64,000 nucleotides of DNA from Patescibacteria group bacterium (GTDB taxonomy: Bacteria > Patescibacteriota > Patescibacteriia > XYB2-FULL-38-15): positions 98 to 64,097 of the forward strand of contig JBAZEY010000001.1 in NCBI GenBank assembly GCA_041653675.1, in the 5' to 3' direction. The translations under genes were made by a program, and so were the position numbers. How positions within the stretch are numbered: position 1 is the stretch's first letter; every line of letters begins with the position of its first letter. Below are positions 3,626-49,467 of this stretch, in pieces. Below the pieces are notes generated by a model that saw only the letters and a list, made by a program, of their open reading frames with translations, had not been told where the DNA came from and ran no database searches.

Positions 3626-3651
3626 TCTCTGAATTCGTTGATATAGAAAAA

Positions 3652-3687
3652 AGCAGGGCGCCCTCTCGGCGCCCTGCTTTGATTTTG
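3652..3687 (+). terminator. Rho-independent terminator (stem agcagggcgcc/ggcgccctgct followed by TTTGATTTT)
   Basis: Perfect 11-bp GC-rich stem with a 5-nt loop and a T-run, immediately after the stop at 3625. Confidence 0.7.
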
Positions 3688-3704
3688 TGGTAAAATAAAA
3701 TTGT

Positions 3705-3763
3705 CCCCGACTAAAGTCGGGACTCCGGCGAACGATTTGGACTCCTCACTTTAGTGAGGGTTG
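3705..3763. repeat. REP-like hairpin pair upstream of the RAYT gene (cccgac-TAAA-gtcggg + gactcc; cctcac-TTTA-gtgagg + gttg)
   Basis: Two 6-bp-stem, 4-nt-loop palindromes with a conserved GACTCC tail; the same units recur at 4311-4450. Confidence 0.7.
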
Positions 3764-3776
3764 AACACAGTAATAT

Positions 3777-4310
3777 ATGCCATACAGAGAATACCATCCG
3801 CCGCATCTATATTTTGATCAAACAATTTATTTTATAACTTGTCGCACAGTAAATAAAGAAAATTTTTTTGCAACCGATGCGCATAAGAATGTTTTATATT
3901 CCTGTCTAAGGACAGGACTCCAAAATTTTAATATTCCGATTTACGCTTTTGTTATTTTGGATAACCATTATCACTTGTTAATAAAAATACAAAAAGCCGG
4001 AGATTTGCCCCTATTTATTAAATATCTTAATGGTAAAAGTTCTTTTGAATTAAATAAATCGGAGAACGAACAGGGCCGGAAAATTTGGTACCAATATTTT
4101 GATCACACAATCCGCGACGAAGCTGATTTTTGGAAACATTTTAATTACATTCATCAAAATCCGGTAAAACACGGGTTCTGTAAAAATTTGAGGGAAGTTT
4201 TTGGTTATCCCTTTTCAAGCGCGAAAAGTTGGAGTAAAATAAAAGGAGAGGAATGGTTTGATTCTTGTTTTGAGTTGTATCCGATTGTTGATTTTACCGC
4301 GGGAGAATAA
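3777..4310 (+). CDS. REP-associated tyrosine transposase (RAYT; IS200/IS605 TnpA-like Y1 HUH enzyme)
   Basis: HUH motif HYHLL; C-terminal catalytic-Tyr region KIWYQYFDHTIRDEADFWKHFNYIHQNPVKHGF...YPFSS matches the TnpA_REP/Y1 transposase signature (IWQ..F.D..I....YI..NPV..G.V....W.YSS); flanked by REPs. Confidence 0.75.
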   Translation: MPYREYHPPHLYFDQTIYFITCRTVNKENFFATDAHKNVLYSCLRTGLQNFNIPIYAFVILDNHYHLLIKIQKAGDLPLFIKYLNGKSSFELNKSENEQGRKIWYQYFDHTIRDEADFWKHFNYIHQNPVKHGFCKNLREVFGYPFSSAKSWSKIKGEEWFDSCFELYPIVDFTAGE

Positions 4311-4450
4311 CCCCGACTAAAGTCGGAACTCCGCAGTCTCTCGGACTCCTCACTTTAGTGAGGGTTGGATCTACCCCGACTAAAGTCGGAACTCCAAATT
4401 TAATAATTTATTTAAAATTAAATTAAGTACCTGTCTAAAGACAGGACTCC
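4311..4450. repeat. Cluster of four REP-like hairpins (two cccgac/gtcgga units, one cctcac/gtgagg unit, one cctgtc/gacagg unit), each with a GACTCC/GAACTCC tail
   Basis: Hairpins at 4311-4332, 4343-4368, 4374-4395 and 4430-4450. All have a 6-bp stem and TAAA/TTTA loop; the last ends 9 nt before the ATG at 4460. Confidence 0.7.
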
Positions 4451-4459
4451 AAAAAACCT

Positions 4460-5128
4460 ATGACCAAAAAATTGAAAATTATTTTGATCGTCGTCGTTTT
4501 TATTTTAATCGCCGGCGGACTTCTCGTCTGGAAAACTTGGAATTGGCAAGGAAAGATGGGGGATTTAAGAAGTTATGTTACTTCCTTATTTTCTGGAGAA
4601 AAAGTAGAAGAATTACCGGCCGATGTTAAAGCGGCCTATGAAGCCTTGAAAAATGATCCGTCAAATACCAGCGCTTATATAAAAATTGCCGCTTGGAAAC
4701 GGGACCAAGGCCAATTGGCGGACGCGATTAAACTTTATGAATCAGCCTTAGAAGTGAAACCAGACGACACTTTGCTTTTAATGAATAGCGCCGAACTTTA
4801 TACGAGAAACGAGCAATATGCCGAGGCCGCGGGAGCGTATGTGAAAGTCATGGAAAGCAACCCGAAGTGGCTTGCCGCCTATCGCAGTTTAGCCGATCTT
4901 TATCGCTACCAAATGCCGGAAAGAAAAATTGAAATTCCGAGCATTTTAAAAAGGGGACTGGAAGCAAATTCGGAAAATGAAATTTATTTTGTCGCGCCGC
5001 TTGCCATTTATTACAAAGATTTCGGACCGGAAGACGAAGCGATTCGCTGGTACGAGCGGCTGCTTGAACTTGAACCCGGAAATCTCACGGCACAGAAAGA
5101 GTTGGAAGAATTAAAAAATAAACAATAA
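4460..5128 (+). CDS. TPR-repeat protein with N-terminal transmembrane anchor
   Basis: N-terminal hydrophobic helix ILIVVVFILIAGGLLVW followed by repeated 34-aa Ala/Tyr/Leu-rich TPR-like units (AYIKIAAWKRDQGQLADAIKLYESALEVKPDD...). Confidence 0.6.
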   Translation: MTKKLKIILIVVVFILIAGGLLVWKTWNWQGKMGDLRSYVTSLFSGEKVEELPADVKAAYEALKNDPSNTSAYIKIAAWKRDQGQLADAIKLYESALEVKPDDTLLLMNSAELYTRNEQYAEAAGAYVKVMESNPKWLAAYRSLADLYRYQMPERKIEIPSILKRGLEANSENEIYFVAPLAIYYKDFGPEDEAIRWYERLLELEPGNLTAQKELEELKNKQ

Positions 5129-5144
5129 ATAACGGTTAAAAATT

Positions 5145-6833
5145 ATGAAAAAAATCGTCTTCGCTCTGATTTTTCTTTTAACTATTCCTTGGATTCCGGT
5201 AGGAGCCGCGGAAACTATTACCGTCACGAATACTGGCGCGCCGGCCGTGATTTTCTATCCTTCAGAGTTTGATAAATTAGTTATGGATTTTACAATCGCG
5301 CGAACCGACGGAACAGCTGATGTTTTAAACGCCCTGACTTTGCAAAACGACGGCACGGCCTGGGGTTGGGATATTTCTAAAGTTGTTGTTTGGGCTGATG
5401 CCGGAGAGGCTGGCTTTCAGGGAATGGCGGTTGACGAAAAATTGGGCGAAGCAGTGCGCTACGAAACTGGCGGTTACTGGTATTTATCAGGATTGCAAAA
5501 AGCTGTGCCTGCATCCGGCCTTCGGATTTTTGTGAGTATTGAAACCGGATCAAAAGCCGTGATTACAGCCAACAGATCGGTCCAAATGAAAGTGCCTCTT
5601 CTTATTGACGGCGGAACGATTGGCCGGTTTGACCTCGGCGATTCGGGTTTATTTTTAGCCGGAGCCACTGGCACCGCGAGTGGAGTTGTAAATCCTTCAG
5701 CCCAGACCATCTGGGTTTCAAATTATGACACGAGCGCGCCCAAAACCGTGGTTACATCTCCCTCGGCCGGAACGATTATCACCACTTCAACTTTCAAAAT
5801 TACCGGCGTGGCGCGCGATCAAGGCGGTTCAACTTTGGCAACGCTTCAAATTCAAATTAACTCTGGGAGTACGGCCGGTTCTTGGGCAGATGTGACAAAT
5901 ACTGGAACAAATTATTCAACCTGGGAATATAATTGGACAAATATTGCCGACGGAACTTACACAATTAAAACGCAAGGCGCCGACTGGCTCGGCAATTCTG
6001 AAACAATCGGGCAGGGGACTACCGTAACAGTTGACCAAACCGCGACAACTTCGGCCTCCGCTTCTGCTTCCACGGTTTCCGCGACGCCCGCCACTCTTCC
6101 GGCCGACGGTTCAACCAGAACGTTTGTCAGCGTACTAGTTAAAAATTTAGTGGGCAGCGCACTTTCCGGAAAAACAGTTTCTTTAGTTTCCGATCGCTCA
6201 ACCGATAACATTATAGCTACCAAAGAAATAACTGGCGTGGACGGCCTGGCCACTTTTGAAGTAACGGGAACTGCGACCGGAGTTTCAACTTTGACCGCGA
6301 CAGTCGGCATCGTGACTTTAGACCAAAAACCGACTTTAACTTTTACCGCCGTTGCTTTTCACGCGGGAGATTTAATTAAAGGAACTGCGAGCACGGCCGT
6401 TTATTATTACGCAGATAACGGCAGAAGATATATTTTTCCGACCGCGGCGATTTATTCATCTTGGTTTACTGGTTTTTCTTCCATTAAAACAATCCCCGAC
6501 GCGGACCTCGCCGCCGTACCGACCTCCGGCAATGTTACTGTGCGGCCCGGAAAGTTGGTCCAGGTTGTCAGTATGGATACGCCCTGGCGCGTGATGGATC
6601 CGAAAGTTTACGCCGTGAGCCGCGGGGGAGTCTTGCGCTGGGTCAAAACCGCCGACGCGGCAAGCGCGATTTTTGGCACGGAATGGGAGAAGAGTATTGT
6701 CGCCGTGCCAGAGGTGTTTGTTACAAATTATAATTACGGAGCTGATATCAACATTGCCACGGATTACAATTTAGCGGCTGAGCAGGCGGTGGCAACAATT
6801 GACGAAGATAAAAGTGCGAGGGTGACGGATTAA
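5145..6833 (+). CDS. Secreted surface protein: signal peptide, invasin-type Ig domain (Big_1-like), shared C-terminal ~125-aa domain
   Basis: Signal peptide MKKIVFALIFLLTIPWIPVGAAE. The segment SVSATPATLPADGST...SGKTVSLVSDR...TGVDGLATFEVTGTATGVSTLTATV resembles Big_1. C-terminal YYYADNGRRYIFP...VRPGKLVQVVSMDTPWRVMDPKVYAV is shared with the paralogs. Confidence 0.7.
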   Translation: MKKIVFALIFLLTIPWIPVGAAETITVTNTGAPAVIFYPSEFDKLVMDFTIARTDGTADVLNALTLQNDGTAWGWDISKVVVWADAGEAGFQGMAVDEKLGEAVRYETGGYWYLSGLQKAVPASGLRIFVSIETGSKAVITANRSVQMKVPLLIDGGTIGRFDLGDSGLFLAGATGTASGVVNPSAQTIWVSNYDTSAPKTVVTSPSAGTIITTSTFKITGVARDQGGSTLATLQIQINSGSTAGSWADVTNTGTNYSTWEYNWTNIADGTYTIKTQGADWLGNSETIGQGTTVTVDQTATTSASASASTVSATPATLPADGSTRTFVSVLVKNLVGSALSGKTVSLVSDRSTDNIIATKEITGVDGLATFEVTGTATGVSTLTATVGIVTLDQKPTLTFTAVAFHAGDLIKGTASTAVYYYADNGRRYIFPTAAIYSSWFTGFSSIKTIPDADLAAVPTSGNVTVRPGKLVQVVSMDTPWRVMDPKVYAVSRGGVLRWVKTADAASAIFGTEWEKSIVAVPEVFVTNYNYGADINIATDYNLAAEQAVATIDEDKSARVTD

Positions 6834-7243
6834 GAGATTGTGGATAAGTTTCCTCTTGACCAACTCAGTTTTTCGTGATAAAATAAAAGAAGATTAAATT
6901 AATATGAAGTTAACCGTGCTTGTCGTTTCGCAAACGAGCGAATTAGTTTTAAGTTTCTCTAGGGGGAGAGACTTGTTTAATGCTTAATTTTTAGGCATTT
7001 TTTTGTTGTTTAACTAAGAATTTAACTAATAAATTTAATTAAATATAAACCTTACCCTGCGAGAAATTTATTCTGCGGGGAATAAGCGCTACGGCGCTTG
7101 AAATTCCGTCGCTCGTCCCAAATGTTCCGCCGAGGTGGACCACTTGCGGACTCGCTAGGAATTATAAAAAAGGCGAATTTCGGAATTAATTGCGAATAAT
7201 TTTATTCGCAGTTCTCAATTCTTGGTTCGTCGTTTCAAAAAAT

Positions 7244-10102
7244 ATGGCAGAAAGAATCAAAAAAGGCTTTTTCAAAGTATTGCCATTGTCGGTGGTAGTA
7301 TTTTTAGTGTTAGGCTTGGTGGTGTCCTTCACCATGCCAACTCCTCAAAATCTCGGAGTAGAGCCTGTGAAAGCAGCGGTTAACGGCGGCACTACGTCGG
7401 CTCTCTGGCTATTGGACACAAACGCAACTCCAAACGGAAAAATTGATAGAATCACTTTTAGTGTCCTTAACACGAGCGGAGATGCTTGGGCTTTGAATGT
7501 TGCCTTACCTTACGGGTTAAGCGTAACCCAGGCTGGCAATGCGATAACTATTTCGGCAGTTACTATCACGTCGATCGCCACCGCCAATCCAATTACTGTA
7601 CAAGTTGATTTAGATGAAAGTGACGCAGACTTACTCGTGAATACTGACGGTGTTACCACGGGAGCCATAGAATTAATCTATACTCCAGTCCTCTTCGCAA
7701 ACTGCGGCACAACAGCCAGTATTTGTGATACCGATGAAGAAATGAATGTCATTGCGACCGGCGATACCGGAGCAACTGATACTGAAGTTGATAAAGCCGC
7801 GCCGTATATGACTTCCGCAACTTATGGGGATTCCGACGCGGGTGGCAACGTTGACCGAGTTACTTTTGTCTTTTCCGAATCAACAACCTGGACCGCTATG
7901 ACCGCCGCGGATTGGGCATTCGGAGCTGGCGACATCGCTATAACAGGAGATTTTCTTATTGGTGACTGTACTGCCTCTCCATCTATAACCTATGTCTGTA
8001 CTGATGCGGCTAACGCTCATATTACCTCAACCGCCGATAGAACCGGTAAGCAGACTTTAGCGGGTATTGAACCAACCTTTACTTATACCAATAGCACTAA
8101 CGACATCAATGATGGCGCTGCTGCTAATAACACTGCCACTTTTGGGCCAAACTCCTTGGCTGATGGCGCCGCGCCATATTTCCTCTCTGCTATCTATTCA
8201 GATTCTACCGCTGACGGAAAAGTTGACCGCGTGGCTTTTGCCTTTTCTGAAGTGACGACCTTTAACGCGATTACTGCCGCGGACTGGGCATTTGGCGGAG
8301 GTGACATTGTCCTTAGTGGCGACTTTGCTCTCGCTGAATGCGTGGGTTCAGCCACCCTCACCACCGTTACCTGCACTGACGCTGGCACGGGAACAGTTGA
8401 CGCCACTGCTTCAAGAACCGGCAAACAAACTTTAGCAGGCATTGAACCAACTATTACTTATACTAATGGCACTAATGACATTAGAGATGCCTCCTCCAAT
8501 AATACTGCCACTTTTGGTCCAACATCCTTGGTTGATGGCGCAGCTCCAGTCTTTGTGACCACCTCTCCGGCTGACGGCGCGACAGGCGTGGCCCTGGACG
8601 CGAGTATGGTTATTACTTTCTCCGAGACGATGACCGAGGCCTCTGTTACAGGCGCGATTACCAGAGCTCCAGCATTTACTCTCGGCACGGCATCATGGAA
8701 TGCGGCGAGCATAATTCTTACTTACTCCGCTCACGACGCTTTTGCCGGCATGCAGAACTACATCATCACCTTAGCCGGAACAATCGCCTCAGCGGCCGCA
8801 ACTGACGGAAATCTTGGGACTGGTCCGGTAGCAAATCCTTTTGACTTCACTACGGTCGCGGCTTCTAGCGGCGGAGGAGGCGCTGCAACATTACCCGCGT
8901 CTATCACTGTCACAACTCCGAACGGCGGCGAAATTTTGACCGGAGGAGGAACTTACAGCATCACCTGGTCGGCTGTTAGTAATACCGACCCGGTTAGCAT
9001 TTATTATTCAACTGACAGCGGCATAAATTTCCTGAACACCATAGCTACGGACGAAACGAACGATGGTTCTTACACCTGGACTGTTCCGAACGTTGCCACG
9101 AGCGCGGCCAAGGTTAAAGTAGTGAGCGGCAGTTTGAATGATATTTCTGATTCCAACTTTACTATCACTTACTCTACTTCCGCGGTTTCCACTTCCACCT
9201 CCACAGTTGTTGCTTCCCCGACTTCAGTGACGGCCAACGGAACTTCCAAATCAACTGTCACAGTCACCGTCAAAGACTCGAGTTCTAATCTGCTTTCTGG
9301 TAAAGTCGTGACCCTTGCTTCTTCTCGCGGCACTTCCGATACGGTTACGACCGTGACCGGCACAACCGGCACTAACGGCGTCGCCACTTTTGAAGTCAAA
9401 TCAAGCACGGCTGGCACTTCAACTTACACGGCTACTGCCGCGGGCGTAGTTCTAACTCAAACCGCTTCAGTCTCCTTTGCCGCTCCCGGCACGCCTGGTG
9501 AAACTCCAGTTTCTCTTAGTGTCGGAGACTTGATTAAGAGCAGTCTCAGCTCTTCGGTCTATTACTATGGTTCCGACGGCAAACGCCATGTCTTCCCGAA
9601 TGAAAAGACTTACAAGAGTTGGTATGTGGATTTCACCGGCATCAAAACTATTTCCGCCTCTCAACTCCAGGGCATCACTCTTGGCAAAAATGTCACGGTC
9701 CGTCCCGGCACGGTGCTCGTCAAAATCCAGACTGATCCCAAGGTCTACGCCGTTGAACCAGGCGGGCTCCTTCGCTGGGTTCCGACCGAAGCTCGTGCCA
9801 CCACTCTTTACGGCTCCTCTTGGGCCTCAAAGATCATTGATGTTCCAGTCATCTTCTGGGTTGACTACACCTTTGGCACTGACATTACGACCGACAAACA
9901 TCCGACCGGCGCCTTGGTCCAATATACTGGTTCAACTGAAAAATATTACATCCAGGGCACGGAAAAGCGTTTGATCTCCACTGCCGGCTTCACCGCCAAC
10001 AAATTCCAGTTGTCCAATGTCCTTACTGTCCCAACTACCATTACCTACACAACTGGCACGGCTCTCTCAGCCGAGGAGACAGCGCTATCTAGAATTTACT
10101 AG
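7244..10102 (+). CDS. Giant surface protein paralog. Modules: signal anchor, two tandem ~131-aa DGAAP modules, Big_5-like, compact beta-sandwich (GPI/Kre9-like pattern ITWS...YSTDSG...DGSYTWTVP), Big_1-like, shared C-terminal domain.
   Basis: The ORF track starts at 7190, but the conserved N-terminus MAERIKKGFFKVLPLSVVVFLVLGL, identical in pattern to the 10281 gene, begins at ATG 7244. Domain motifs are read directly from the translation. No SD. Confidence 0.7.
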   Translation: MAERIKKGFFKVLPLSVVVFLVLGLVVSFTMPTPQNLGVEPVKAAVNGGTTSALWLLDTNATPNGKIDRITFSVLNTSGDAWALNVALPYGLSVTQAGNAITISAVTITSIATANPITVQVDLDESDADLLVNTDGVTTGAIELIYTPVLFANCGTTASICDTDEEMNVIATGDTGATDTEVDKAAPYMTSATYGDSDAGGNVDRVTFVFSESTTWTAMTAADWAFGAGDIAITGDFLIGDCTASPSITYVCTDAANAHITSTADRTGKQTLAGIEPTFTYTNSTNDINDGAAANNTATFGPNSLADGAAPYFLSAIYSDSTADGKVDRVAFAFSEVTTFNAITAADWAFGGGDIVLSGDFALAECVGSATLTTVTCTDAGTGTVDATASRTGKQTLAGIEPTITYTNGTNDIRDASSNNTATFGPTSLVDGAAPVFVTTSPADGATGVALDASMVITFSETMTEASVTGAITRAPAFTLGTASWNAASIILTYSAHDAFAGMQNYIITLAGTIASAAATDGNLGTGPVANPFDFTTVAASSGGGGAATLPASITVTTPNGGEILTGGGTYSITWSAVSNTDPVSIYYSTDSGINFLNTIATDETNDGSYTWTVPNVATSAAKVKVVSGSLNDISDSNFTITYSTSAVSTSTSTVVASPTSVTANGTSKSTVTVTVKDSSSNLLSGKVVTLASSRGTSDTVTTVTGTTGTNGVATFEVKSSTAGTSTYTATAAGVVLTQTASVSFAAPGTPGETPVSLSVGDLIKSSLSSSVYYYGSDGKRHVFPNEKTYKSWYVDFTGIKTISASQLQGITLGKNVTVRPGTVLVKIQTDPKVYAVEPGGLLRWVPTEARATTLYGSSWASKIIDVPVIFWVDYTFGTDITTDKHPTGALVQYTGSTEKYYIQGTEKRLISTAGFTANKFQLSNVLTVPTTITYTTGTALSAEETALSRIY
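7778..8566 (+). repeat. Intragenic tandem duplication: two ~393-bp (131-aa) DGAAP modules
   Basis: DKAAPYMTSATYGDSDAGGNVDRVTFVFSE...RTGKQTLAGIEPTFTYTN and DGAAPYFLSAIYSDSTADGKVDRVAFAFSE...RTGKQTLAGIEPTITYTN are near-identical at the aa level. Confidence 0.7.
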
Positions 10103-10122
10103 AACTTAGATAGATTAGAAAA

Positions 10123-23717: not shown

Positions 23718-23768
23718 GCCACCATTGAGTTGGTGGCGGGCGGCCGTCGGAGTTTCCGGCGGTTTTTG
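23718..23768. terminator. Convergent terminator region: hairpin gccacc-attgagt-tggtggc, then hairpin ccgucgg-aguuu-ccggcgg + T-run
   Basis: The second hairpin, the 24-mer ccgtcggagtttccggcggttttt at 23744-23767, is repeated exactly at 24437-24460. Confidence 0.6.
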
Positions 23769-23778
23769 TTTTCGGGTG

Positions 23779-24060
23779 TTAGTCCTCCACGATGTCAGGC
23801 ATCAGAAGACATGGGTAATGGCCAGGATAGCGTCGGATTTTCCCCCAGCCGGCATTGAGATGAACCGTCACCTCAGAGAAATCATTCTTAACCACGGTAG
23901 CTTTTGCGGTCATGTTGATCAGGCCGCCAAACCAGCAGAAAAGCACAACAGTCACTTGTTGGCCGATAAGTGCCGTACTCAGGGTGGTGATGTGGTCGCA
24001 GCTTTCCTCCCTTCGGTCAGCCAGAATTTTCTCCATTTGGGCTCTCTTTTTGGGCGTCAT
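23779..24060 (-). CDS. Small protein of unknown function, paralog B (93 aa), GC-rich, C-terminus YPCLLMPDIVED
   Basis: ATG at 24060 is preceded by AAAAGGAGG-acag. The protein shares about 30% identity with the adjacent paralog, including M.KIL at the N-terminus, AKATV, and C.LMP..VED at the C-terminus. GC is about 55% versus about 38% in the flanks. Confidence 0.6.
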   Translation of the reverse strand: MTPKKRAQMEKILADRREESCDHITTLSTALIGQQVTVVLFCWFGGLINMTAKATVVKNDFSEVTVHLNAGWGKIRRYPGHYPCLLMPDIVED

Positions 24061-24080
24061 CTGTCCTCCTTTTCGAGCCG

Positions 24081-24371
24081 TCAATCCTCCACAGTCGGCA
24101 TCAGGAAGCATGGGCAATCCAGAGCAAAGCGGCGCGGGTTCGCGGGTTCCTTGAAGAGGCGAAGTAGGATGCCGTCCTCGGGCCGAGACAAGTCGCGCTC
24201 GATTACCGTGGCTTGGGCTGCCTTGAAACGGCGCGGATCCCACCAGGGCGTGGTAATGGCGATAGTCACAAGTCCACCAGGAGGAACAACTCCGAGATCG
24301 GTCAGCCAGTCGCCCTCTTCCATGTGTCTTGTGAGGAGGACGTTCATTTCGTCTTTCAGAATTTTGATCAT
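24081..24371 (-). CDS. Small protein of unknown function, paralog A (96 aa), C-terminus CPCFLMPTVED
   Basis: ATG at 24371 is preceded by AAGGAGG-ggttg. The 97-aa ORF-track start at 24374 is a TTG one codon upstream. Tandem with paralog B; GC-rich. Confidence 0.6.
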   Translation of the reverse strand: MIKILKDEMNVLLTRHMEEGDWLTDLGVVPPGGLVTIAITTPWWDPRRFKAAQATVIERDLSRPEDGILLRLFKEPANPRRFALDCPCFLMPTVED

Positions 24372-24398
24372 CAACCCCTCCTTGTTTGGTGACCTATT

Positions 24399-24427
24399 AT
24401 TTAATCATTGATTTCGTTTTTTGTCAA
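24399..24427 (-). promoter_or_regulatory. Candidate sigma70-type promoter for the two small paralogs (-35 TTGACA, 17-nt spacer, -10 TTAAAT)
   Basis: Minus-strand ttgacaaaaaacgaaatcaatgattaaat, about 25 nt upstream of the SD. Confidence 0.4.
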
Positions 24428-24436
24428 TAAGAAAAA

Positions 24437-24460
24437 CCGTCGGAGTTTCCGGCGGTTTTT
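24437..24460. terminator. Bidirectional terminator hairpin (ccgtcggagtttccggcggttttt); exact second copy of the 24-mer at 23744
   Basis: A-run before and T-run after. It terminates the minus-strand membrane-protein gene ending at 24471 and bounds the GC-rich islet. Confidence 0.6.
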
Positions 24461-31095: not shown

Positions 31096-31518
31096 ATGGC
31101 GAAAGAATTTAAAGTTTTTGAATTAAAAAAGGTTGATACGCCAAAATTTGTCATGAGTCCGGTAGAATTGAAAGATTATATTGATTTTGAAGTGAAGCGC
31201 GTTTATTTTATTACAAAGCCCGCGGCGCCGACCGGTGCGCATTGCCATAAAGTTGAAGAAGAATTTTTTGTTTTGATTGCCGGAAGTTGTACAGCTGTTG
31301 TTGACCGAGGCCAGGGACTTGAAGAAATTCCGCTCACTGGTCCGACCGGGGCGATGTATATTCCAAATTTTGTTTGGCATCATTTTAAAGATTTTTCTCC
31401 GGACGCCATTCTTTTGGCGCTTTCATCGACAAATTATAATCCTGATCGGAGCGACTATATTGAAGACTATGAAGAATTTAAAAAGGCGAGCCCGTATTAT
31501 CGGGGTAGTGAAAATTAA
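31096..31518 (+). CDS. Cupin-fold dTDP-4-keto-6-deoxy-sugar 3,4-ketoisomerase (FdtA/WxcM-like)
   Basis: 140-aa cupin with a HCHK...EEFFVLIAGS pattern characteristic of the FdtA/QdtA family; sits between rfbB and rfbD/rfbA. Confidence 0.55.
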   Translation: MAKEFKVFELKKVDTPKFVMSPVELKDYIDFEVKRVYFITKPAAPTGAHCHKVEEEFFVLIAGSCTAVVDRGQGLEEIPLTGPTGAMYIPNFVWHHFKDFSPDAILLALSSTNYNPDRSDYIEDYEEFKKASPYYRGSEN

Positions 31519-31529
31519 AGCATAAACAT

Positions 31530-31748
31530 ATGGAAAATAGTTTTTTTTCCGGAGAAAACATAAAGAGCCTGGGAAGCCTAGAGGAGGAAAGAAAAATGAG
31601 AGAACGCGTGCAGAGTTTGGAAGGGATGATTAGAAAAGGCGGAGAGCAAGGCGAGAAGGCTAAAAAGGCATTACTTAGAGAATTCGGTCCTAAGGCTCTG
31701 GGGTTAGTTGTAGAATTACAAAGAGAAATAAAAAAGAATAAAAAATAG
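31530..31748 (+). CDS. Small charged hypothetical protein (72 aa)
   Basis: ORF with host-like AT composition, Lys/Glu-rich; followed by the terminator at 31764. Confidence 0.3.
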   Translation: MENSFFSGENIKSLGSLEEERKMRERVQSLEGMIRKGGEQGEKAKKALLREFGPKALGLVVELQREIKKNKK

Positions 31749-31763
31749 AATAAATTTATAAAT

Positions 31764-31790
31764 AAAAAAGCGGCCAAACGGCCGTTTTTT
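31764..31790 (+). terminator. Rho-independent terminator (gcggcc aaac ggccgt + T6)
   Basis: Stem plus T-run; immediately followed by TTGACA (31795-31800) at the edge of the GC-rich islet. Confidence 0.6.
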
Positions 31791-31873
31791 AGTATTGACA
31801 TTTTGGTTTTTATATCTTAACCTTATCAATATCAAAGAGGAGCCAAAGGGGCTTCAAGAAAGGAAAGAAGAAG

Positions 31874-32446
31874 ATGGCAGTGATCACGTTGGAGGGGGCC
31901 GTGCGCAGGCTGGACGGCGCATTCGTTTACCTCGAACCAGAGGAGGTGGCGGCGAGAAAACTCTCCGAGGGCAAAGGGGTCGAGCTCTGGTACTTCGATC
32001 CGGCGACCGGACGAATCGCTCGTGGCGATGGCAAGTTCTTCGACATCCGCATGGTGGACCGCGGCGGGTGGGGGCAGATCGTGCTCTACGAGGAGCCGAA
32101 CGTGCCGCAGTCGGCGGATCCCACTATGCCGCGCATCGTGGGCCACGTCGTGATCGAGACGACCCGCAGGTACGGCGCACTGCTCGTACGCGTGCACAAG
32201 GCCACGGGCCTGAACGGCGGGATTCTGGAGCTCAAGCCGTCCAGCATCTCCAAGGGCGAACTGGCCGAGAGAGGTCTCGAGCCTGTCGGCTATTTCGAGG
32301 CCAGTCCCCAGCGCATCATGGGCATGATCGCCGTCTACCTCATGGAGACGGACTTCCCGGAAGAGGAAGGCAGGACTGTGCTCCAGTTCTTCAAGCACTC
32401 CACCGACGGGCGGTCGCTCGCGGCCCTGGCCAAGGCCGGCCTGTAG
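31874..32446 (+). CDS. Hypothetical protein (190 aa) in GC-rich islet 2
   Basis: About 62% GC coding sequence with high-GC third positions. The overlapping 296-aa frame-1 ORF and the 213-aa antisense ORF are Arg-rich artefacts. AGGAAAG precedes the ATG by 9 nt. Confidence 0.5.
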   Translation: MAVITLEGAVRRLDGAFVYLEPEEVAARKLSEGKGVELWYFDPATGRIARGDGKFFDIRMVDRGGWGQIVLYEEPNVPQSADPTMPRIVGHVVIETTRRYGALLVRVHKATGLNGGILELKPSSISKGELAERGLEPVGYFEASPQRIMGMIAVYLMETDFPEEEGRTVLQFFKHSTDGRSLAALAKAGL

Positions 32447-32466
32447 TCGGCTACGGGAGGAATATC

Positions 32467-32685
32467 GTGGCAAGGTTGCACAAGCCCAAGAAGAAGCGCA
32501 GCAAGCTGGAGAGGATCCGGCACGAGAAGTTCGAGATCGCCAAGATCATCTATCGTGCGGAGGCGGGCCGCACTTGTCCCGAGGAGAAGATGAACAAGTT
32601 TCTCGCCCGCTGGCACGCTCTCTGCAACGAGGAGTTGCGCGCCATGGTCGAGGCGTCGAAGGTGCGCAAGGCCGCCGCGGCCTGA
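32467..32685 (+). CDS. Small basic protein (72 aa), GTG start
   Basis: GGGAGG-aatatc-GTG (strong SD, 6-nt spacer). Product VARLHKPKKKRSKLERIRHEKFEIAKIIYRAEAGRTCPEEKMNKFLARWHALCNEELRAMVEASKVRKAAAA. GC-rich. Confidence 0.5.
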   Translation: MARLHKPKKKRSKLERIRHEKFEIAKIIYRAEAGRTCPEEKMNKFLARWHALCNEELRAMVEASKVRKAAAA

Positions 32686-32725
32686 TCTAGACAAGAACAA
32701 GGAGGACAGAAACACACACCGTTTT

Positions 32726-32782
32726 TTGCAGCATCTGCTGCCGAAAGCGGTGTTTTTTTATACACTTTGTGCTATTATAAAA
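32726..32782 (+). terminator. Compound terminator (acacaccgtttttt - inner hairpin gcagcatctgctgc - cggtgttttttt), followed by an extended -10-like TGcTATTAT
   Basis: Outer stem acaccg/cggtgt with T-run. The same acaccgtttt...cggtgtttttt arrangement recurs at 33218-33262. Confidence 0.5.
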
Positions 32783-32824
32783 ATTGGGGAAAAGCCAGCG
32801 CATTGGCTGGTGAAGGAGGAGAAG

Positions 32825-33211
32825 ATGGAAGAACAAGGAGTGACTAAGCATGTTCCCGATCGAGCAGTCGTGAGTCTCGTAAATCGGATCCTTCTGCGGG
32901 CGATTGAGCTCAAGGCGGATGAGATCTACGTCGGACCCGACGAAGAAGGAATCGCGGCCAGCGAATTTGCTATTAGCTATTTGGTCAACGGCAAACTGTA
33001 TTCGCGGGAGGCGATGATGAGGTCGACGTGTGTGAATATCATCGCCCACTTCAAAGAGCTGGGCAGGCTCAATCACGCGAAACGGGACACGCGGCAGGAG
33101 GGTGATTTCCTGACGAAGGGCGAGGGTCGGGAATGGATTTTCCGTATCACTGTCGAACCGGCACCGCCGTTCGGTGAGAAGGTGATCGCCAAGCTCGTTC
33201 GGCGTTCCTAG
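32825..33211 (+). CDS. N-terminal (N2) domain fragment of a PilB/GspE/PilT-class secretion ATPase, stand-alone or truncated; no Walker A/ATPase core
   Basis: VVSLVNRILLRAIELKADEIYVGPDEE...ISYLVNGKLYSRE...REWIFRITVEPAPPFGEKVIAKLV matches the start of the T2SSE ATPase family (vklvn.il..Ai...ASDIHiEp...vRyRiDG.L...dlRVstlPt.yGEkvVlRlL). SD AAGGAGGA lies 5 nt before ATG 32825. The ORF stops about 15 residues before where Walker A would be. Confidence 0.55.
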   Translation: MEEQGVTKHVPDRAVVSLVNRILLRAIELKADEIYVGPDEEGIAASEFAISYLVNGKLYSREAMMRSTCVNIIAHFKELGRLNHAKRDTRQEGDFLTKGEGREWIFRITVEPAPPFGEKVIAKLVRRS

Positions 33212-33217
33212 AGAAGT

Positions 33218-33262
33218 ACACCGTTTTGGCAACTGAACATTGCCGGGACGGTGTTTTTTATT
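33218..33262 (+). terminator. Rho-independent terminator (acaccgt ... acggtgt + T6)
   Basis: 7-bp stem with a 23-nt loop and T-run; marks the 3' boundary of GC-rich islet 2. Confidence 0.55.
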
Positions 33263-33340
33263 TTAGATTTAAGGATTGACGAAAAGCGGTGATTTTAGTA
33301 AAGTAGAAAGAGTGGTAAAAAGTTAAAATTTAGCTTAAAT

Positions 33341-34183
33341 ATGAAGGTTTTAATCATTGGAGCAAAGGGAATGTTGGGGCAGGAGTTGGTCCAAGAATTT
33401 GGCGGGAACGGTTATGATGTGGTGGGATTTGATAAAGAAGAAATTGATATTACAAAAAAAGAAGAAGTTAGTAAAAAAATATCCGACCTAAAACCGGAAA
33501 TTATTATTAACGCCGCGGCTTACAATGCGGTGGACAAAATTGAAGAAGGGGAGAAAGATTTGGCGGAAAGAGTTAATGGTTATGCTGTGGGAAATTTATC
33601 TCTGGCAGCCGGAGCAGTGGGCGCGACTTTAGTTCACTACAGTACTGATTATGTTTTTGACGGGAAAGAAATTGATGGCTATAAAGAAGACGCTCGGCCA
33701 AATCCACAGAGTATTTATGCGATGTCAAAACGGCTAGGCGAAGATCAGTTGAAAAATGAAAAATATTATTTAATAAGAACCTCAAGATTGTTTGGTAAGC
33801 CAGCCATAAGTGAAGGAGCAAAAAAAGGTTTTGTTGATGTGATGCTGAGGTGCGCGGAGGAAAAAGATTGTTTGGAGCTAGTTGACGAGGAAGTGAGTTC
33901 GCCAACTTATGTCTCGGATCTCGCTCGGCGGACAAGAGAAATTATCGAATGGAAAAAAATATTTGGAATTTATCATGTAACAAATGAAGGTTCGTGTACT
34001 TGGTATGGTTGGGCGAAGAAGATATTTGAAATATCCGGTAAAAATGTTAAATTGGTACCGGTGGGAACTGATAAATTTCCAAGGCCAGCCAAAAGGCCAA
34101 AGTATTCAATCCTTTTAAATACAAAATTGCCGCCGATGCGAAAATGGGAAGAGGCATTGACGGATTATTTAAAAATAAAATAA
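33341..34183 (+). CDS. rfbD: dTDP-4-dehydrorhamnose reductase
   Basis: MKVLIIGAKGMLGQEL Rossmann; NAAAYNAVDK; RmlD-like length and order. Confidence 0.75.
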   Translation: MKVLIIGAKGMLGQELVQEFGGNGYDVVGFDKEEIDITKKEEVSKKISDLKPEIIINAAAYNAVDKIEEGEKDLAERVNGYAVGNLSLAAGAVGATLVHYSTDYVFDGKEIDGYKEDARPNPQSIYAMSKRLGEDQLKNEKYYLIRTSRLFGKPAISEGAKKGFVDVMLRCAEEKDCLELVDEEVSSPTYVSDLARRTREIIEWKKIFGIYHVTNEGSCTWYGWAKKIFEISGKNVKLVPVGTDKFPRPAKRPKYSILLNTKLPPMRKWEEALTDYLKIK

Positions 34184-34186
34184 ATT

Positions 34187-35257
34187 ATGAAAGCCCTGAT
34201 TACGGCCGGAGGCAGAGCAACAAGGTTGAGGCCGATAACTTATACAACTAATAAACACTTGATTCCCATCGCCAATAAGCCGATGCTGTTTTATGCGTTG
34301 GAAAAAATCGCCGAGACGGGAGTGAAAGAGGTTGGGATAAATATTAATCCCGGAGAAAAAGAAATCCAACCGGCGGTTGGCGATGGCAGTAGGTGGGGTT
34401 TAAAAATAACATACATTGAACAGTCTGGCGGACCGAAAGGTTTAGCGCATATTGTCAAAAACGCAAAAGATTTTTTAGGCGACGAGCCTTTTATTTTTTA
34501 TCTTGGCGATAATATTATTTTGGGAAGCATCAAGAGATTTGTTGATAAATTTGTTAACGAAAAACTTAATGTCCTTTTGGCTTTTGCCCGTGTATCCGAT
34601 CCGGAACGTTTTGGCGTGCCAGTCATCCAGAATGGGAAAGTACTCCGCGTTGAAGAAAAACCAGCGAACCCCAAAAGTAATTTTGCTCAAACAGGAATTT
34701 ATATTTATGACCACCGTATTTTTGACGCGGTGGAAAATATTCCTCCTTCTCCGCGCGGTGAATATGAAATTTCGGACGCTAATACGTATTTGATTGATAA
34801 GGGCTTTAATGTTGGCTACGAAGAAATTACTGGATGGTGGAAAGACACAGGAAAACCGGAGGATTTACTCGAAGGAAACCAATTGATCTTACACGATTTA
34901 TCAGATATAAAAAATGAGGCCAATGTGGCCCCAGGGGTTGTTATCCAAGGAAAAGTAAAAATTGAAAAAGGAACGTTTATCGGCGGTAAATCTTTAATCC
35001 GCGGTCCGGTCGTGATCGGAACGAATTGTATAATCAATGATAGTTATATCGGACCATACACTTCAATTGGCAATAACACAAAAATCACCAATACAGAGAT
35101 CGAACATTCAATTATTTTTGATAACGCAAATATAAAATGTGGAAAGAGAATTGTTGATAGTTTGATTGGACACAACGCAATCATCGCTTCTTCTTGTGAT
35201 AGTCTACCTCTCGGCCATAAAATGATTATCGGTGATAATTCGGTAGTGGAACTATAA
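34187..35257 (+). CDS. Sugar-1-phosphate nucleotidyltransferase, long form with C-terminal left-handed beta-helix (RfbA/glucose-1-phosphate thymidylyltransferase-like)
   Basis: N-terminus MKALITAGGRATRLRPITYTTNKHLIPIANKPM (G-x-G-T-R-L NTP-transferase motif); C-terminal hexapeptide repeats. Confidence 0.7.
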   Translation: MKALITAGGRATRLRPITYTTNKHLIPIANKPMLFYALEKIAETGVKEVGININPGEKEIQPAVGDGSRWGLKITYIEQSGGPKGLAHIVKNAKDFLGDEPFIFYLGDNIILGSIKRFVDKFVNEKLNVLLAFARVSDPERFGVPVIQNGKVLRVEEKPANPKSNFAQTGIYIYDHRIFDAVENIPPSPRGEYEISDANTYLIDKGFNVGYEEITGWWKDTGKPEDLLEGNQLILHDLSDIKNEANVAPGVVIQGKVKIEKGTFIGGKSLIRGPVVIGTNCIINDSYIGPYTSIGNNTKITNTEIEHSIIFDNANIKCGKRIVDSLIGHNAIIASSCDSLPLGHKMIIGDNSVVEL

Positions 35258-48819: not shown

Positions 48820-49467
48820 CTATCGCTTGTCGGCGACCACACAGTTGCGTCCCGCGCATTTGGCCTCGTAAAGCGCCCTGTCGGCCTCTTCGAGTCCTTC
48901 TTTGGTTTTTGCCTCAGTCACGCCGAGACTGATCGTCACCGAGAAAGTCGATTTGCCGAAGGAAAAGGGCACTGCCGCCACAGCCTTGCGGAGCCGTTCG
49001 GCGACCAAAGCCGCGTTCTCTGGAGTTGCTCCCCGGAGAATGATGACGAATTCGTCCCCACCCATTCGTCCGATCACGTCATACGGGCGAAGAGCTGTGC
49101 GGAAACGTCTGATGATCTCCTTTAGGATCTCATCTCCGGCCGGGTGTCCGTATGTGTCGTTGATTCCCTTGAAGATGTCGACGTCAATTGCGATCACGCT
49201 AAGTGGTGAAGTGAAGCGTTTGGAGAAAGCGAGCTCATTTACAACTGCTAACTCGACTCCGGCGCGATTCAGCGCACCGGTCAAGGGATCGACCCTAGCC
49301 AATTCTTGCAGTTCGTCATTCTTGGCGGTGAGCCTCACAATTTCTGCCCCGAGAGCCCTGATCCGCGTTTCGCTGTCTGCCCGCTCCTCGTAGGCCGCCG
49401 CGAGCGCGATCCGTAGTTGTCGCACGGGAAGATCTCGCACCTTCTTGGAAACCCGCCTTTTTGCCAT
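48820..49467 (-). CDS. Stand-alone GGDEF-domain diguanylate cyclase with N-terminal coiled-coil segment
   Basis: RMGGDEFVIIL active-site motif with conserved upstream DxD (AIDVDIFKGINDTYGHPAGDEIL). GC about 57%. Strong SD GAAGGAGG-tttc-ATG. Confidence 0.75.
   Translation of the reverse strand: MAKRRVSKKVRDLPVRQLRIALAAAYEERADSETRIRALGAEIVRLTAKNDELQELARVDPLTGALNRAGVELAVVNELAFSKRFTSPLSVIAIDVDIFKGINDTYGHPAGDEILKEIIRRFRTALRPYDVIGRMGGDEFVIILRGATPENAALVAERLRKAVAAVPFSFGKSTFSVTISLGVTEAKTKEGLEEADRALYEAKCAGRNCVVADKR

Follow-up and report, generated by a model that had tools for sequence, protein, structure and literature searches.

A GC-rich islet in a 64,000-nucleotide stretch of Patescibacteria DNA (the window) represents one allele of an accessory-gene array that is modular and varies between strains. 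In a clade of Patescibacteria, this array is located at a fixed slot within the dTDP-L-rhamnose (rml) operon. The slot lies between an fdtA-like cupin gene with an adjoining small ORF and rmlD, and in at least ten other Patescibacteria contigs it is filled by arrays of between one and five GC-rich genes, each led by a Shine-Dalgarno (SD) sequence (occupied slots in L003, L004, L005, L007, L008, L017, L018/L019, L020 and L022). The arrays have AT-rich promoter, leader-hairpin, SD and terminator frames in common and vary in gene content, and the slot is directly bordered by rml genes at all loci. The array in the window consists of two units, the first containing ORF190 and ORF72 and the second containing ORF128. 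Each module forms a self-contained transcription unit. It comprises a terminator, a TTGACA promoter, a leader that is rich in AT and contains a small hairpin, a strong SD and from one to three GC-rich genes, with a second terminator of the form ACACCG...CGGTGT-Tn behind them. The array is probably a variable module that is driven by recombination and linked to the biology of dTDP-sugars and the cell surface.

The islet spans positions 31803-33292 and remains above 52% GC throughout (mean 57%, peak 65% in a 200-nt sliding window), compared with 43% for the whole window. The GC content is 65% in ORF190, 62% in ORF72 and 55% in ORF128; the 60-62% given in the original prediction thus holds for the first two genes and not for the third. 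GC1/GC2/GC3 values are.65/.43/.85 for ORF190,.55/.42/.89 for ORF72 and.61/.39/.66 for ORF128, whereas GC3 in host genes is.33-.43 (near 0.38), which agrees with the compositional anomaly predicted for all three genes. The amino-acid composition of the islet is shifted towards GC-rich codons, and the stretches between the islet genes are AT-rich while each coding sequence is GC-rich. The expected contrast in translation signals is also present, with an SD core of 5 nt or more preceding all three islet genes and just one of the 52 other genes in the window, this single gene being a member of another GC-rich islet. An Rfam scan of positions 31300-33500 at permissive E-values assigned no RNA family to the islet, and when the whole window was scanned with gathering scores as cutoff, the only matches were four tRNAs, all outside the islet. 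No paralogues of ORF190, ORF72 or ORF128 were found within the window.

On its left the slot is delimited by a bidirectional terminator hairpin (31765..31792; GCGGCC-N4-GGCCG plus a T run; terminator scan) that ends the upstream unit of the fdtA-like gene and small ORF and is conserved at this edge in the window, L003, L004, L005, L007 and L008 and also in L018, L020 and L022. All other features described here are on the + strand. The promoter-like element of unit 1 (31795..31823), read from the sequence, consists of a -35 box TTGACA (31795-31800), a 17-nt spacer and a -10-like TAACCT (31818-31823). The TTGACA had been predicted at the 5' edge of the islet, and both it and a TAAnCT are kept in six aligned loci; the element is uncalled in a consensus scan because its -10 fits at only three of six positions. 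The conserved AT-rich leader that follows (31824..31873) comprises a tandem TATCAA-TATCAA (31824-31835), a small hairpin at about 31840-31854 (AGCC/GGCT) and, after it, a purine-rich SD, AAGGA, 9 nt 5' of the ORF190 ATG. In unit 2 of L020 the equivalent leader hairpin is built from other sequence (CTGGC...GCCAG).

The end of ORF72 and an orphan SD-like box make up a conserved junction (32675..32715; ...GCCGCGGCCTGATC-N-ACAAGAACAAGGAGGA) that is more than 90% identical between the window and L020 and is kept even where relatives have lost ORF72. The unit 1 terminator (32716..32760; ACACCGTTTTTTGCAGCATCTGCTGCCGAAAGCGGTGT plus a T run; terminator scan), a variant that also lies 3' of the ORF72 homologue in L020, begins with the 10 nt ACACCGTTTT. 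These form the left copy of a direct repeat, and the right copy is the initial 10 nt of the unit 2 terminator (33218..33260; ACACCGTTTTGGCAACTGAACATTGCCGGGACGGTGT plus a T run; terminator scan), the one that canonically closes the slot on its right. The combination ACACCGTTTT...CGGTGT occurs exactly twice (32716-32753 and 33218-33254; zero occurrences expected by chance). Terminators sharing such a motif had been predicted to bound the islet; the two copies exist, but they flank ORF128 alone and not the entire islet. Between them, the AT-rich promoter and leader region of unit 2 (32761..32824; read from the sequence and by SD scan) carries a hairpin formed by CCAGC (32795-32799) and GCTGG (32806-32810) and the SD AAGGAGG (32813-32819). 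The terminator-to-ATG stretch, from the end of ORF72 to the start codon of ORF128, is 86% identical in nucleotide sequence between the window and L020, exceeding 90% in the first ~125 columns, which lie mostly 5' of the unit 2 leader, and falling lower within the leader. At the right border of the slot is a promoter-like site for rmlD (33276..33304; TTGACG-17-TAAAGT), kept in L004, L008 and L017, where the host composition resumes. The 3' frame of the slot is kept among relatives, as is the 5' frame, and the AT-rich frames run on continuously into the flanking sequence.

Behind the frame that is 86% identical between the window and L020, the encoded N2 proteins (see below for ORF128) are only 39% identical. 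Comparison with L018 shows homology interrupted at 31828|32463, where an unrelated 241-aa gene with a weak NudE/Nudix match (E 0.005) stands in for ORF190, and again at 32725|33218, a break that coincides exactly with the 10-nt direct repeat and where the ORF128 unit is absent; the same skip from 32725 to 33218 is seen in relatives that lack the N2 gene. Alignment of the ORF190 family by hhalign with the alternative proteins of L017 (ORF184, E 0.14) and L018 (ORF241, E 0.083) was not significant and revealed short common motifs only. The window allele (L002) and the alternative allele (L019) occur together in one sequencing run, SRR18595300. Flanking genes of the occupied slots have dS values of 0.3-2.8, and between the window and L003 dS is 0.30 in rmlD and 2.78 in rmlA, a mosaic pattern. 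Units are presumably gained, deleted and swapped by recombination inside the repeated conserved frames, and the likely route would be DNA uptake followed by homologous or microhomology-mediated exchange. This exchange mechanism is deduced from the breakpoints alone because no recombinase accompanies the slot: among the neighbouring genes examined there is no recombinase, transposase or integrase, the only repeats being the direct repeats of terminator sequence.

The functions proposed here for the islet genes are inferred. ORF190 (31874..32446) encodes a 190-aa protein that had been described as having no recognisable motif. Its structural model displays the alpha/beta/alpha sandwich of the Nudix fold, with the dTDP-sugar 2,3-dehydratase EvaA as the top structural match. 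The systems it resembles are the EvaA-type NDP-hexose 2,3-dehydratases (PF03559; PDB 4J7G) and the Nudix-fold hydrolases (NudF, GDP-mannose hydrolase), and the protein is likely to be a distant single-domain relative of EvaA, the closest of these. EvaA chains are 446-448 residues long and contain two tandem Nudix-like domains, whereas ORF190 has one domain. Unlike in the Nudix-fold sugar-nucleotide hydrolases, the canonical Nudix box (GX5EX7REUXEEXGU) is absent from both the 190-aa sequence and the family consensus, and the model contains no helix over residues 32-168, where the Nudix helix would sit. Searches of 47 family members against the Pfam NUDIX families gave no significant match, only NUDIX_4 with one member (E 0.26), and ORF190 itself has no sequence match in Pfam, NCBIfam or the PDB. 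The similarity to PF03559 is non-significant overall (E 0.06-0.09): the family member ORF164 of L020 scores below the cutoff (E 0.085; 12.7 bits, cutoff 25), and hhalign of the family with a PF03559 protein of L013 gives a weak alignment (E 0.063 over 100 columns).

The ORF190 family has about 50 members, and among the matches that carry a name in a search of 5.8 billion proteins only Patescibacteria are represented. Most members adjoin rml genes; in addition to the slot described here, four further arrangements lie in or beside rml clusters (L006, L009, L013 and L014), that of L013 with a PF03559 gene as neighbour, and three members (L010, L011 and L016) are located away from rml genes. At 13 distinct loci the family genes have a GC3 of 0.63-0.95 with host flanks of 31-62% GC, and they are GC-richer than the host at every locus measured. 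The rmlB gene upstream of the slot provides, in this context, dTDP-4-keto-6-deoxyglucose, the substrate of 2,3-dehydratases. Fold and context together suggest that ORF190 could bind or transform a dTDP-sugar intermediate, plausibly this RmlB product, and such an activity would vary or throttle the surface glycan. The dN/dS ratio of ORF190 is 0.17-0.40 over ten pairs, compared with about 0.03-0.22 (mostly <0.1) in the flanking genes, and its dN is three to five times that of the flanks. The gene thus appears to be under purifying selection that is looser than in the flanks; dN/dS is below 1 everywhere measured, and the faster evolution of the protein may reflect relaxed constraint instead of diversifying selection.

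ORF72 (32467..32685) encodes a small basic protein of 72 aa. It starts with GTG, located 6 nt 3' of the SD GGAGG, and homologues begin M-A-R-L at the equivalent position. The protein is predicted to be a basic helical hairpin, with helices at residues 13-34 and 39-71 of the model (pLDDT 87) forming a two-helix hairpin preceded by a basic N-terminal tail. A fold search returned nothing informative (generic helical hairpins only, E around 1), and a match to the Pfam family DUF2087 (E 0.005) is below threshold. There are five database homologues, counting ORF72 itself, and homologues in the same slot are found in L003, L005, L017, L018 and L020.

ORF128 (32825..33211) encodes a 128-aa protein related to the PilB/GspE/PilT secretion ATPases (PF00437 T2SSE; TIGR02538 PilB; TIGR02533 GspE), with which it aligns over its full length to the N2 (N-terminal PAS-like) domain that directly precedes the ATPase core. 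The original prediction had recognised this N2 domain and its end at the domain boundary, and Pfam, NCBIfam and phmmer searches all support the assignment. Residues 12-126 match positions 5-113 of the 370 positions of the T2SSE profile with 26.7 bits, exceeding the gathering threshold of 24.9, and the N2 homologue of L020 matches positions 3-111 with 65 bits. In NCBIfam the N2 regions of GspE, PilB, TfpB and ComGA match with E-values from 8e-11 to 9e-5 (GspE 76-190/465; PilB 172-286/564), and most of the 171 phmmer matches fall at residues about 170-300 of ~560-aa ATPases. By eye, the canonical N2 motifs ASDIH, RxDG, PQDGR and RVSxxPxxxGEKxVxRLL correspond to ADEIY, VNGKL, RQEGDF and RITVEPAPPFGEKVIAKLV in ORF128. 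The RecA-like core (Walker A GPTGSGKT, Walker B, Asp box, His box) is not present in ORF128, and a protein without N1, Walker A, Walker B and His box cannot be an ATPase; ORF128 is a complete N2 domain that stands alone, homologous to part of PilB/GspE but outside the enzyme family. Itself excluded, its identity to database proteins does not exceed 38-42%. No pilus genes are present among the annotated ORFs of the window.

Complete stand-alone homologues of 120-121 aa close the array at the same slot in L020 (39% identity) and L022 (36%), placing ORF128 in a small set of free-standing 120-128-aa proteins known from this single slot. Since such homologues end arrays elsewhere, ORF128 is a recurrent member and not a truncated ATPase, which favours the domesticated stand-alone N-domain that had been offered as an alternative. 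Its interpretation as a private 0.5-kb insertion of this lineage was dropped after the L020 and L022 units were found; that the unit was lost in other lineages when the repeated terminators recombined is no less likely than insertion here. A free N2 domain could dock on the ATPase core of a type IV pilus and modulate it.

The persistent GC-richness and SD dependence of the array genes could stem from repeated import out of a GC-rich pool or from maintenance, through selection or biased gene conversion, at a hot spot of recombination; the data fit either. A rival reading, possible but less likely than not, is that the GC-richness is an actively maintained equilibrium rather than a fading foreign mark. 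Either selection acting on the composition of codons or mRNA or GC-biased gene conversion at this hot spot would sustain it, and strong SDs would offset structured GC-rich mRNAs in a host whose initiation is otherwise SD-free. ORF190 family members that are only 32-50% identical keep a GC3 of 0.63-0.95 and do not visibly track the GC content of their hosts (31-62%), and a search of 5.8 billion proteins revealed no GC-rich donor lineage, all taxon-named matches of ORF190 being from Patescibacteria. The confinement of the high GC content to coding sequences between AT-rich intergenic frames, the stronger conservation of four-fold degenerate sites in ORF190 (0.59-0.75, versus 0.40-0.66 in the flanks with one outlier at 0.82) and the recombination mosaicism at the slot are likewise consistent with maintenance. 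However, GC1 and GC2 are raised as well, as in genes that evolved within a GC-rich genome, the neighbouring rmlD has recently been exchanged and has normal GC, and a Patescibacteria lineage of 63% GC that carries the ORF190 family exists (L006). Counts of polarised synonymous singletons (17 S>W, 2 W>S) fit stationarity, a stationary GC-rich gene simulated by the same method giving ratios of 3.7-6.4 to 1, and are also compatible with slow amelioration.

It is less likely that the array is a conflict module, made up of phage-derived moron-like units or serving defence or superinfection exclusion. In that case the type IV pilus ATPase would be poisoned by the free N2 domain acting as a decoy, remodelling of a rhamnose-containing receptor would fall to the Nudix-like enzyme, and the quick turnover would reflect an arms race. 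The units resemble morons in having their own promoter and terminator and an atypical composition, the coding sequences outpace the frames (39% amino-acid versus 86% nucleotide identity), alternative alleles are found together in one sample, ORF190 dN exceeds that of the flanks three- to fivefold, and in cultivated Saccharibacteria host binding depends centrally on type IV pili and on glycans rich in rhamnose (PMC11623550). Against this, PADLOC-DB 2.0 has no match for ORF190, ORF72, ORF128 or the alternative array proteins of L017 and L018, PHROGs has none for ORF190, ORF72 or other array genes except T2SSE-like matches for the N2 proteins, a pattern scan of IMG/VR found no ORF190 relative, phage or integrase genes are not adjacent, and dN/dS is below 1. 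Such a module would in any case overlap with a recombination-driven variable module and does not exclude it.

More speculative still, and considered improbable in its entirety, is an undescribed `plug-and-play' system of Patescibacteria in which GC-rich genes from a private pool are shuffled into standardised AT-rich frames of promoter, hairpin, SD and terminator. The pool would include EvaA-like sugar-nucleotide enzymes, small basic helical proteins and free PilB N2 `decoys', its GC-rich, SD-dependent coding style would be actively maintained as an expression regime of its own or would persist through strong biased gene conversion, and surface rhamnose glycans and type IV pili would be the means by which the system mediates conflict or interaction with hosts. 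A literature search found no relevant account of GC-rich islands in CPR genomes.

The main reading of the original prediction, a recent one-off horizontal acquisition that left a broken piece of a larger GC-rich, SD-using locus ending in a truncated PilB/GspE ATPase, is largely refuted and must be considered very unlikely. The difference in GC3 between the islet (0.66-0.89) and the host (near 0.38), the GC-shifted amino acids, the SDs (3/3 versus 1/52) and the end of ORF128 short of the Walker A region would all be expected of such an event. However, related arrays fill the slot in at least ten contigs with flank dS values of 0.3-2.8, and homologues of ORF190 bear Patescibacteria-type names only. 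The end of ORF128 falls exactly on the N2/core boundary, a property shared by its complete same-slot stand-alone homologues P0056 and P0077, and a terminator follows 7 nt past its stop codon with no ATPase remnant downstream. A close full-length parent is also lacking, the best among the matches listed being 34% identical for full-length ATPases and 38% for partial ones, and the proposed fragment of a larger foreign locus is not borne out.

A chimeric contig, in which a GC-rich segment from another organism was joined in silico, can be dismissed as extremely improbable: the base composition steps sharply at both islet edges, one of two other assemblies (L001) stops inside the islet and the other (L002, covering 31661-33369) is a Logan contig of just 1.7 kb, but both are 100% identical over the junctions they reach, L002 crosses the two of them, samples and studies independent of one another show the same layout at the junctions (L003-L008, L017, L018, L020 and L022), the AT-rich frames pass into the flanks without a break, and the contig breaks are accounted for by co-existing alleles in one run (L002 versus L019). 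Linkage across the boundaries is thereby confirmed, and the GC-rich patch is real and not an assembly artefact.

Patescibacteria (CPR) are ultra-small bacteria that live as obligate episymbionts. In cultivated Saccharibacteria, surface glycans and type IV pili decide host attachment (PMC11623550). A strain-variable module in the rhamnose operon with alleles co-existing in one sample is therefore a candidate determinant of host or phage specificity. The array also defines three uncharacterised families: a phylum-wide single-domain EvaA-like Nudix-fold family, a basic helical hairpin and a stand-alone PilB N2 domain. In addition, it offers an unusually clean natural case of genes with GC3 ~0.8-0.9 and strong SDs inside genomes of ~40% GC that otherwise lack SDs, and this GC-rich state persists among family members with only 30-50% identity, making the slot a useful system for distinguishing GC held locally in bacteria by selection or biased gene conversion from GC due to ancestry. 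In practical terms, such islets fragment metagenome assemblies and prompt false calls of chimerism.

Among known systems, integron cassette arrays also consist of small ORFs of odd composition with hairpin-forming repeats between them and show presence or absence at repeat boundaries. An integron was rejected, given that the hairpins are ordinary intrinsic terminators with T runs, each unit has its own promoter, no RYYYAAC/GTTRRRY core sites were seen on reading and no integrase is encoded among the neighbouring genes examined. Phage morons resemble the slot units in carrying a promoter and a terminator per unit, but the slot is located outside any prophage. O-antigen and capsule clusters located between conserved rml genes likewise combine variable content and atypical composition with recombination in conserved flanks. 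O-antigen clusters are typically AT-rich, whereas the slot genes show the opposite bias, being GC-rich in an AT-rich host. Furthermore, the variable genes of the slot are not the glycosyltransferases, flippases and polymerases of surface-polysaccharide loci and, unlike the genes of those loci, they are carried in units with common, repeated promoter and terminator frames.

Within the rml (dTDP-L-rhamnose) operon, a GC content above 52% is sustained throughout 31803–33292 (mean 57%, peak 65% in a 200-nt sliding window), compared with 43% for the whole window and 39–42% in the flanking rml genes; the GC-rich islet with three genes is thus confirmed with small corrections. ORF190 (31874–32446), ORF72 (32467–32685, GTG start) and ORF128 (32825–33211) lie on the same strand, with GC1/GC2/GC3 values of.65/.43/.85,.55/.42/.89 and.61/.39/.66, respectively. 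This pattern, with GC3 of.66–.89 against.33–.43 in host genes, is as expected for real genes in a GC-rich codon usage and supplies a coding signal. The claim that these genes, unlike those of the host, carry Shine–Dalgarno (SD) sequences also holds: cores of at least 5 nt precede 3/3 islet ORFs (AAGGA, GGAGG and AAGGAGG) and 1/52 other window genes, the exception sitting in another GC-rich patch. Host starts follow A/T-rich stretches such as 'aaatt ATG' and essentially lack SDs across the window, these being confined to GC-rich islet genes; no 16S rRNA gene is present in the window. The TTGACA noted at the 5′ edge was located at 31795–31800, on the 5′ side of ORF190. The terminator motif ACACCGTTTT...CGGTGT does occur twice, at 32716 and 33218 only (chance expectation 0), in both cases as a T-tailed hairpin, but the two copies bracket ORF128 and not the whole islet.

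The islet is not an assembly artefact. Both junctions are spanned by a Logan contig of run SRR18595300, which matches 31661–33369 at 100% identity and so supports linkage across the boundaries. In ENA, a contig of a different assembly matches the window at 100% identity for 10.8 kb and terminates within the islet.

Gene contexts were fetched for homologues of ORF190, ORF72 and ORF128. GC-rich arrays occupy the same slot, bordered by an fdtA-like gene and a small host-like ORF on one side and by rmlD on the other, in the compared loci L003, L004, L005, L007, L008, L017, L018/L019, L020 and L022. With slashes separating units, the window array reads ORF190–ORF72 / ORF128. L003 and L005 carry ORF190–ORF72; L004, L007 and L008 carry ORF190 alone, with the final ORF72 codons remaining; L017 carries ORF184–ORF64–ORF72 and L018/L019 ORF241–ORF71. 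The arrays of L020 and L022 are ORF164 (ORF190 family) / ORF232–ORF69 / N2 and ORF233 / ORF202 (ORF190 family)–ORF65–ORF67 / N2, where N2 is the domain preceding the core of PilB/GspE-type ATPases. All array genes are SD-led and 56–67% GC, compared with 37–46% in the flanking rml genes. The broken foreign fragment of the original prediction is not borne out, since related arrays fill the same slot in all of these loci; the islet is instead an allele of an accessory array that is modular and variable and whose slot in the rml operon is fixed within a Patescibacteria clade. Both the anatomy of this array and its evolutionary dynamics are well supported, while the functions of its genes and the cause of its GC-richness are matters of hypothesis.

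Several records deserve comment. In L005 (JACRNW010000001.1, Candidatus Falkowbacteria, 5992–6639) the ORF190 homologue shifts frame about 40 codons before its usual end, reading ...AVYLRERRLPGCGG... in place of ...DFP.EEGMTP...DGRSLAALAKAGL and continuing into the ORF72 gene, a change that reflects either pseudogenization or an error in sequencing. The 886-kb record OZ246416.1 (L004) is titled 'uncultured Gammaproteobacteria' yet has a typical Patescibacteria rml slot, and the 3.9-kb slot-bearing contig encoding P0207 is binned as Smithella sp.; both public labels look wrong.

The left frame of the array is conserved in six aligned loci and is repeated, with variations, ahead of other units in L018, L020 and L022. 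It comprises, in order, a terminator (GCGGCC-N4-GGCCGC), TTGACA-17 nt-TAAnCT, TATCAA-TATCAA, a small hairpin and an SD rich in purines. On the right, the frame is likewise conserved across aligned relatives and comprises ...GCCGCGGCCTGATC, ACAAGAACAAGGAGGA, an ACACCG...CGGTGT-Tn terminator and the rmlD promoter. TATCAA-TATCAA (or TATCAGTATCAA) directly follows the -10-like element of unit promoters in the window (31824–31835, its sole exact copy there), L003–L008, L020 and L022, and could be the operator of a regulator.

Comparison of alleles locates the breakpoints. Between the ORF72 terminus and the start codon of N2, the window and L020 are 86% identical (>90% in the first 125 nt), and the N2 proteins downstream share only 39% identity. 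Homology with L018 ends at 31828 and restarts at 32463, ORF241 replacing ORF190; a second break, 32725 to 33218, falls exactly at a 10-nt direct repeat, and L018 has no ORF128 unit. Run SRR18595300 yields two slot alleles, ORF190–ORF72–ORF128 as in the window (L002) and ORF241–ORF71 (L019), and assemblies fragment at the slot because the two co-exist; many ORF190 family members lie on very short contigs, consistent with such breaks. The flanks are mosaic when window 33341–35257 is compared with L003 6896–8809, with dS of 0.30 for rmlD, 2.78 for adjacent rmlA and 0.75 for rmlB, which indicates a recent recombination tract covering rmlD and the right-hand portion of the slot. Units would be gained, lost and swapped through recombination in the repeated frames, which we infer to be the simplest explanation for their turnover.

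ORF128 matches Pfam T2SSE above threshold (profile positions 5–113 of 370) and the N2 regions of GspE, PilB, TfpB and ComGA in NCBIfam; its 171 phmmer hits fall mainly at residues ~170–300 of ~560-residue ATPases. The proposed N2 identity therefore stands, but not the proposed truncation: ORF128 stops at the domain boundary, and the same is true of P0056 (121 residues) and P0077 (120 residues), the final genes at the same slot in L020 and L022. On these sequence grounds ORF128 is assigned as a recurrent stand-alone N2 domain. ORF72 has five database homologues, itself included, and is modelled as a hairpin of two helices bearing a basic tail, for which a fold search gave no informative match.

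A search of 5.8 billion proteins gave 52 homologues of ORF190, and all hits with a taxon name carry the label of Patescibacteria or of a candidate phylum within it. The AlphaFold2 model built from 47 family sequences (pLDDT 93) matches the dTDP-sugar 2,3-dehydratase EvaA best in a Foldseek search of the PDB (E = 1.8e-4), followed by Nudix proteins. Sequence searches against NUDIX, PF03559 and PDB chains gave nothing significant, and ORF190 contains no Nudix box. Two weak hints point in the same direction as the EvaA match: L020 ORF164 against PF03559 (E = 0.085) and an hhalign comparison of the ORF190 family with a PF03559 protein of L013 (E = 0.063, 100 columns). An rml cluster again contains or adjoins the family gene in four loci outside the clade, each arranged differently (L006, L009, L013 and L014); no such cluster accompanies it in L010, L011 and L016. 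From the EvaA/Nudix fold and the rml-cluster context, it is reasonable to predict that ORF190 binds or transforms a dTDP-sugar. In L013 (JACRJU010000013.1, Candidatus Uhrbacteria, 6001–7406) the homologue is convergent with a 242-codon gene for a single-domain PF03559 protein (NDP-hexose 2,3-dehydratase) in the rml cluster, both being 62–69% GC against roughly 50% for the host; the two proteins could each represent one half of an EvaA-like enzyme. In two distant lineages, L014 (5244–5930) and L006 (about 5017–5355), the homologue has a second uncharacterised protein directly upstream, somewhat GC-enriched and weakly similar to the canonical Nudix gene found in the rml cluster.

The GC-richness is persistent. 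GC3 of the ORF190 family gene is 0.63–0.95 in 13 distinct loci, with host flanks of 31–62% GC, and high GC3 persists in members just 38–50% identical to the window protein. Within the clade, ORF190 and the flanking genes show dN of 0.11–0.27 and 0.03–0.13, dS of 0.45–0.81 and 0.30–2.8, and fourfold degenerate site identity of 0.59–0.75 and 0.40–0.66 (one pair 0.82), respectively. Polarized synonymous singletons number 17 S>W and 2 W>S; since a stationary GC-rich gene simulated in the same way gives 3.7–6.4 to 1, these counts neither show ongoing decay towards host composition nor exclude it. Two explanations fit these data. The genes could be imported repeatedly from an unsampled GC-rich, SD-using pool, and a 63%-GC Patescibacteria lineage carrying the family does exist (L006). 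Alternatively, the genes could be kept GC-rich actively, through selection acting on their codon or mRNA composition or through GC-biased gene conversion, with the slot as a recombination hot spot. Between the genes, the frames within the islet are AT-rich and conserved, so any GC-raising force either acts on the coding sequences or is tolerated only there.

Elsewhere in the window, 92–15234 holds consecutive very large ORFs (1177, 562, 970, 966 and 626 residues; ~50% GC) with raised GC2, not GC3; bacterial Ig-like domains (Big_1, Big_5, invasin D3) occur in several of them. The run is followed by a subtilase carrying FG-GAP repeats (15455–17674). These proteins probably act at the cell surface or in adhesion. 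A third GC-rich islet (48820–49467, minus strand; GC 57%, GC3.64) encodes a 215-residue GGDEF diguanylate cyclase (Pfam E = 6.6e-39), whose strong SD (AAGGAGG, spacing 5) is the sole one among the 52 genes outside the rml islet; no flanking direct repeats were found there. Another islet (23744–24460) holds two paralogous small minus-strand genes (23779–24060, 93 residues; 24081–24371, 96 residues) with AAGGAGG SDs and GC3 of.61–.65, whose products both end ...LLMP..VED and have no Pfam, PHROG or PADLOC match. A perfect 24-nt direct repeat, CCGTCGGAGTTTCCGGCGGTTTTT, forming a terminator hairpin, lies on either side of the pair (23744 and 24437), so that this islet resembles the ORF128 unit in placing GC-rich genes between repeated terminators.
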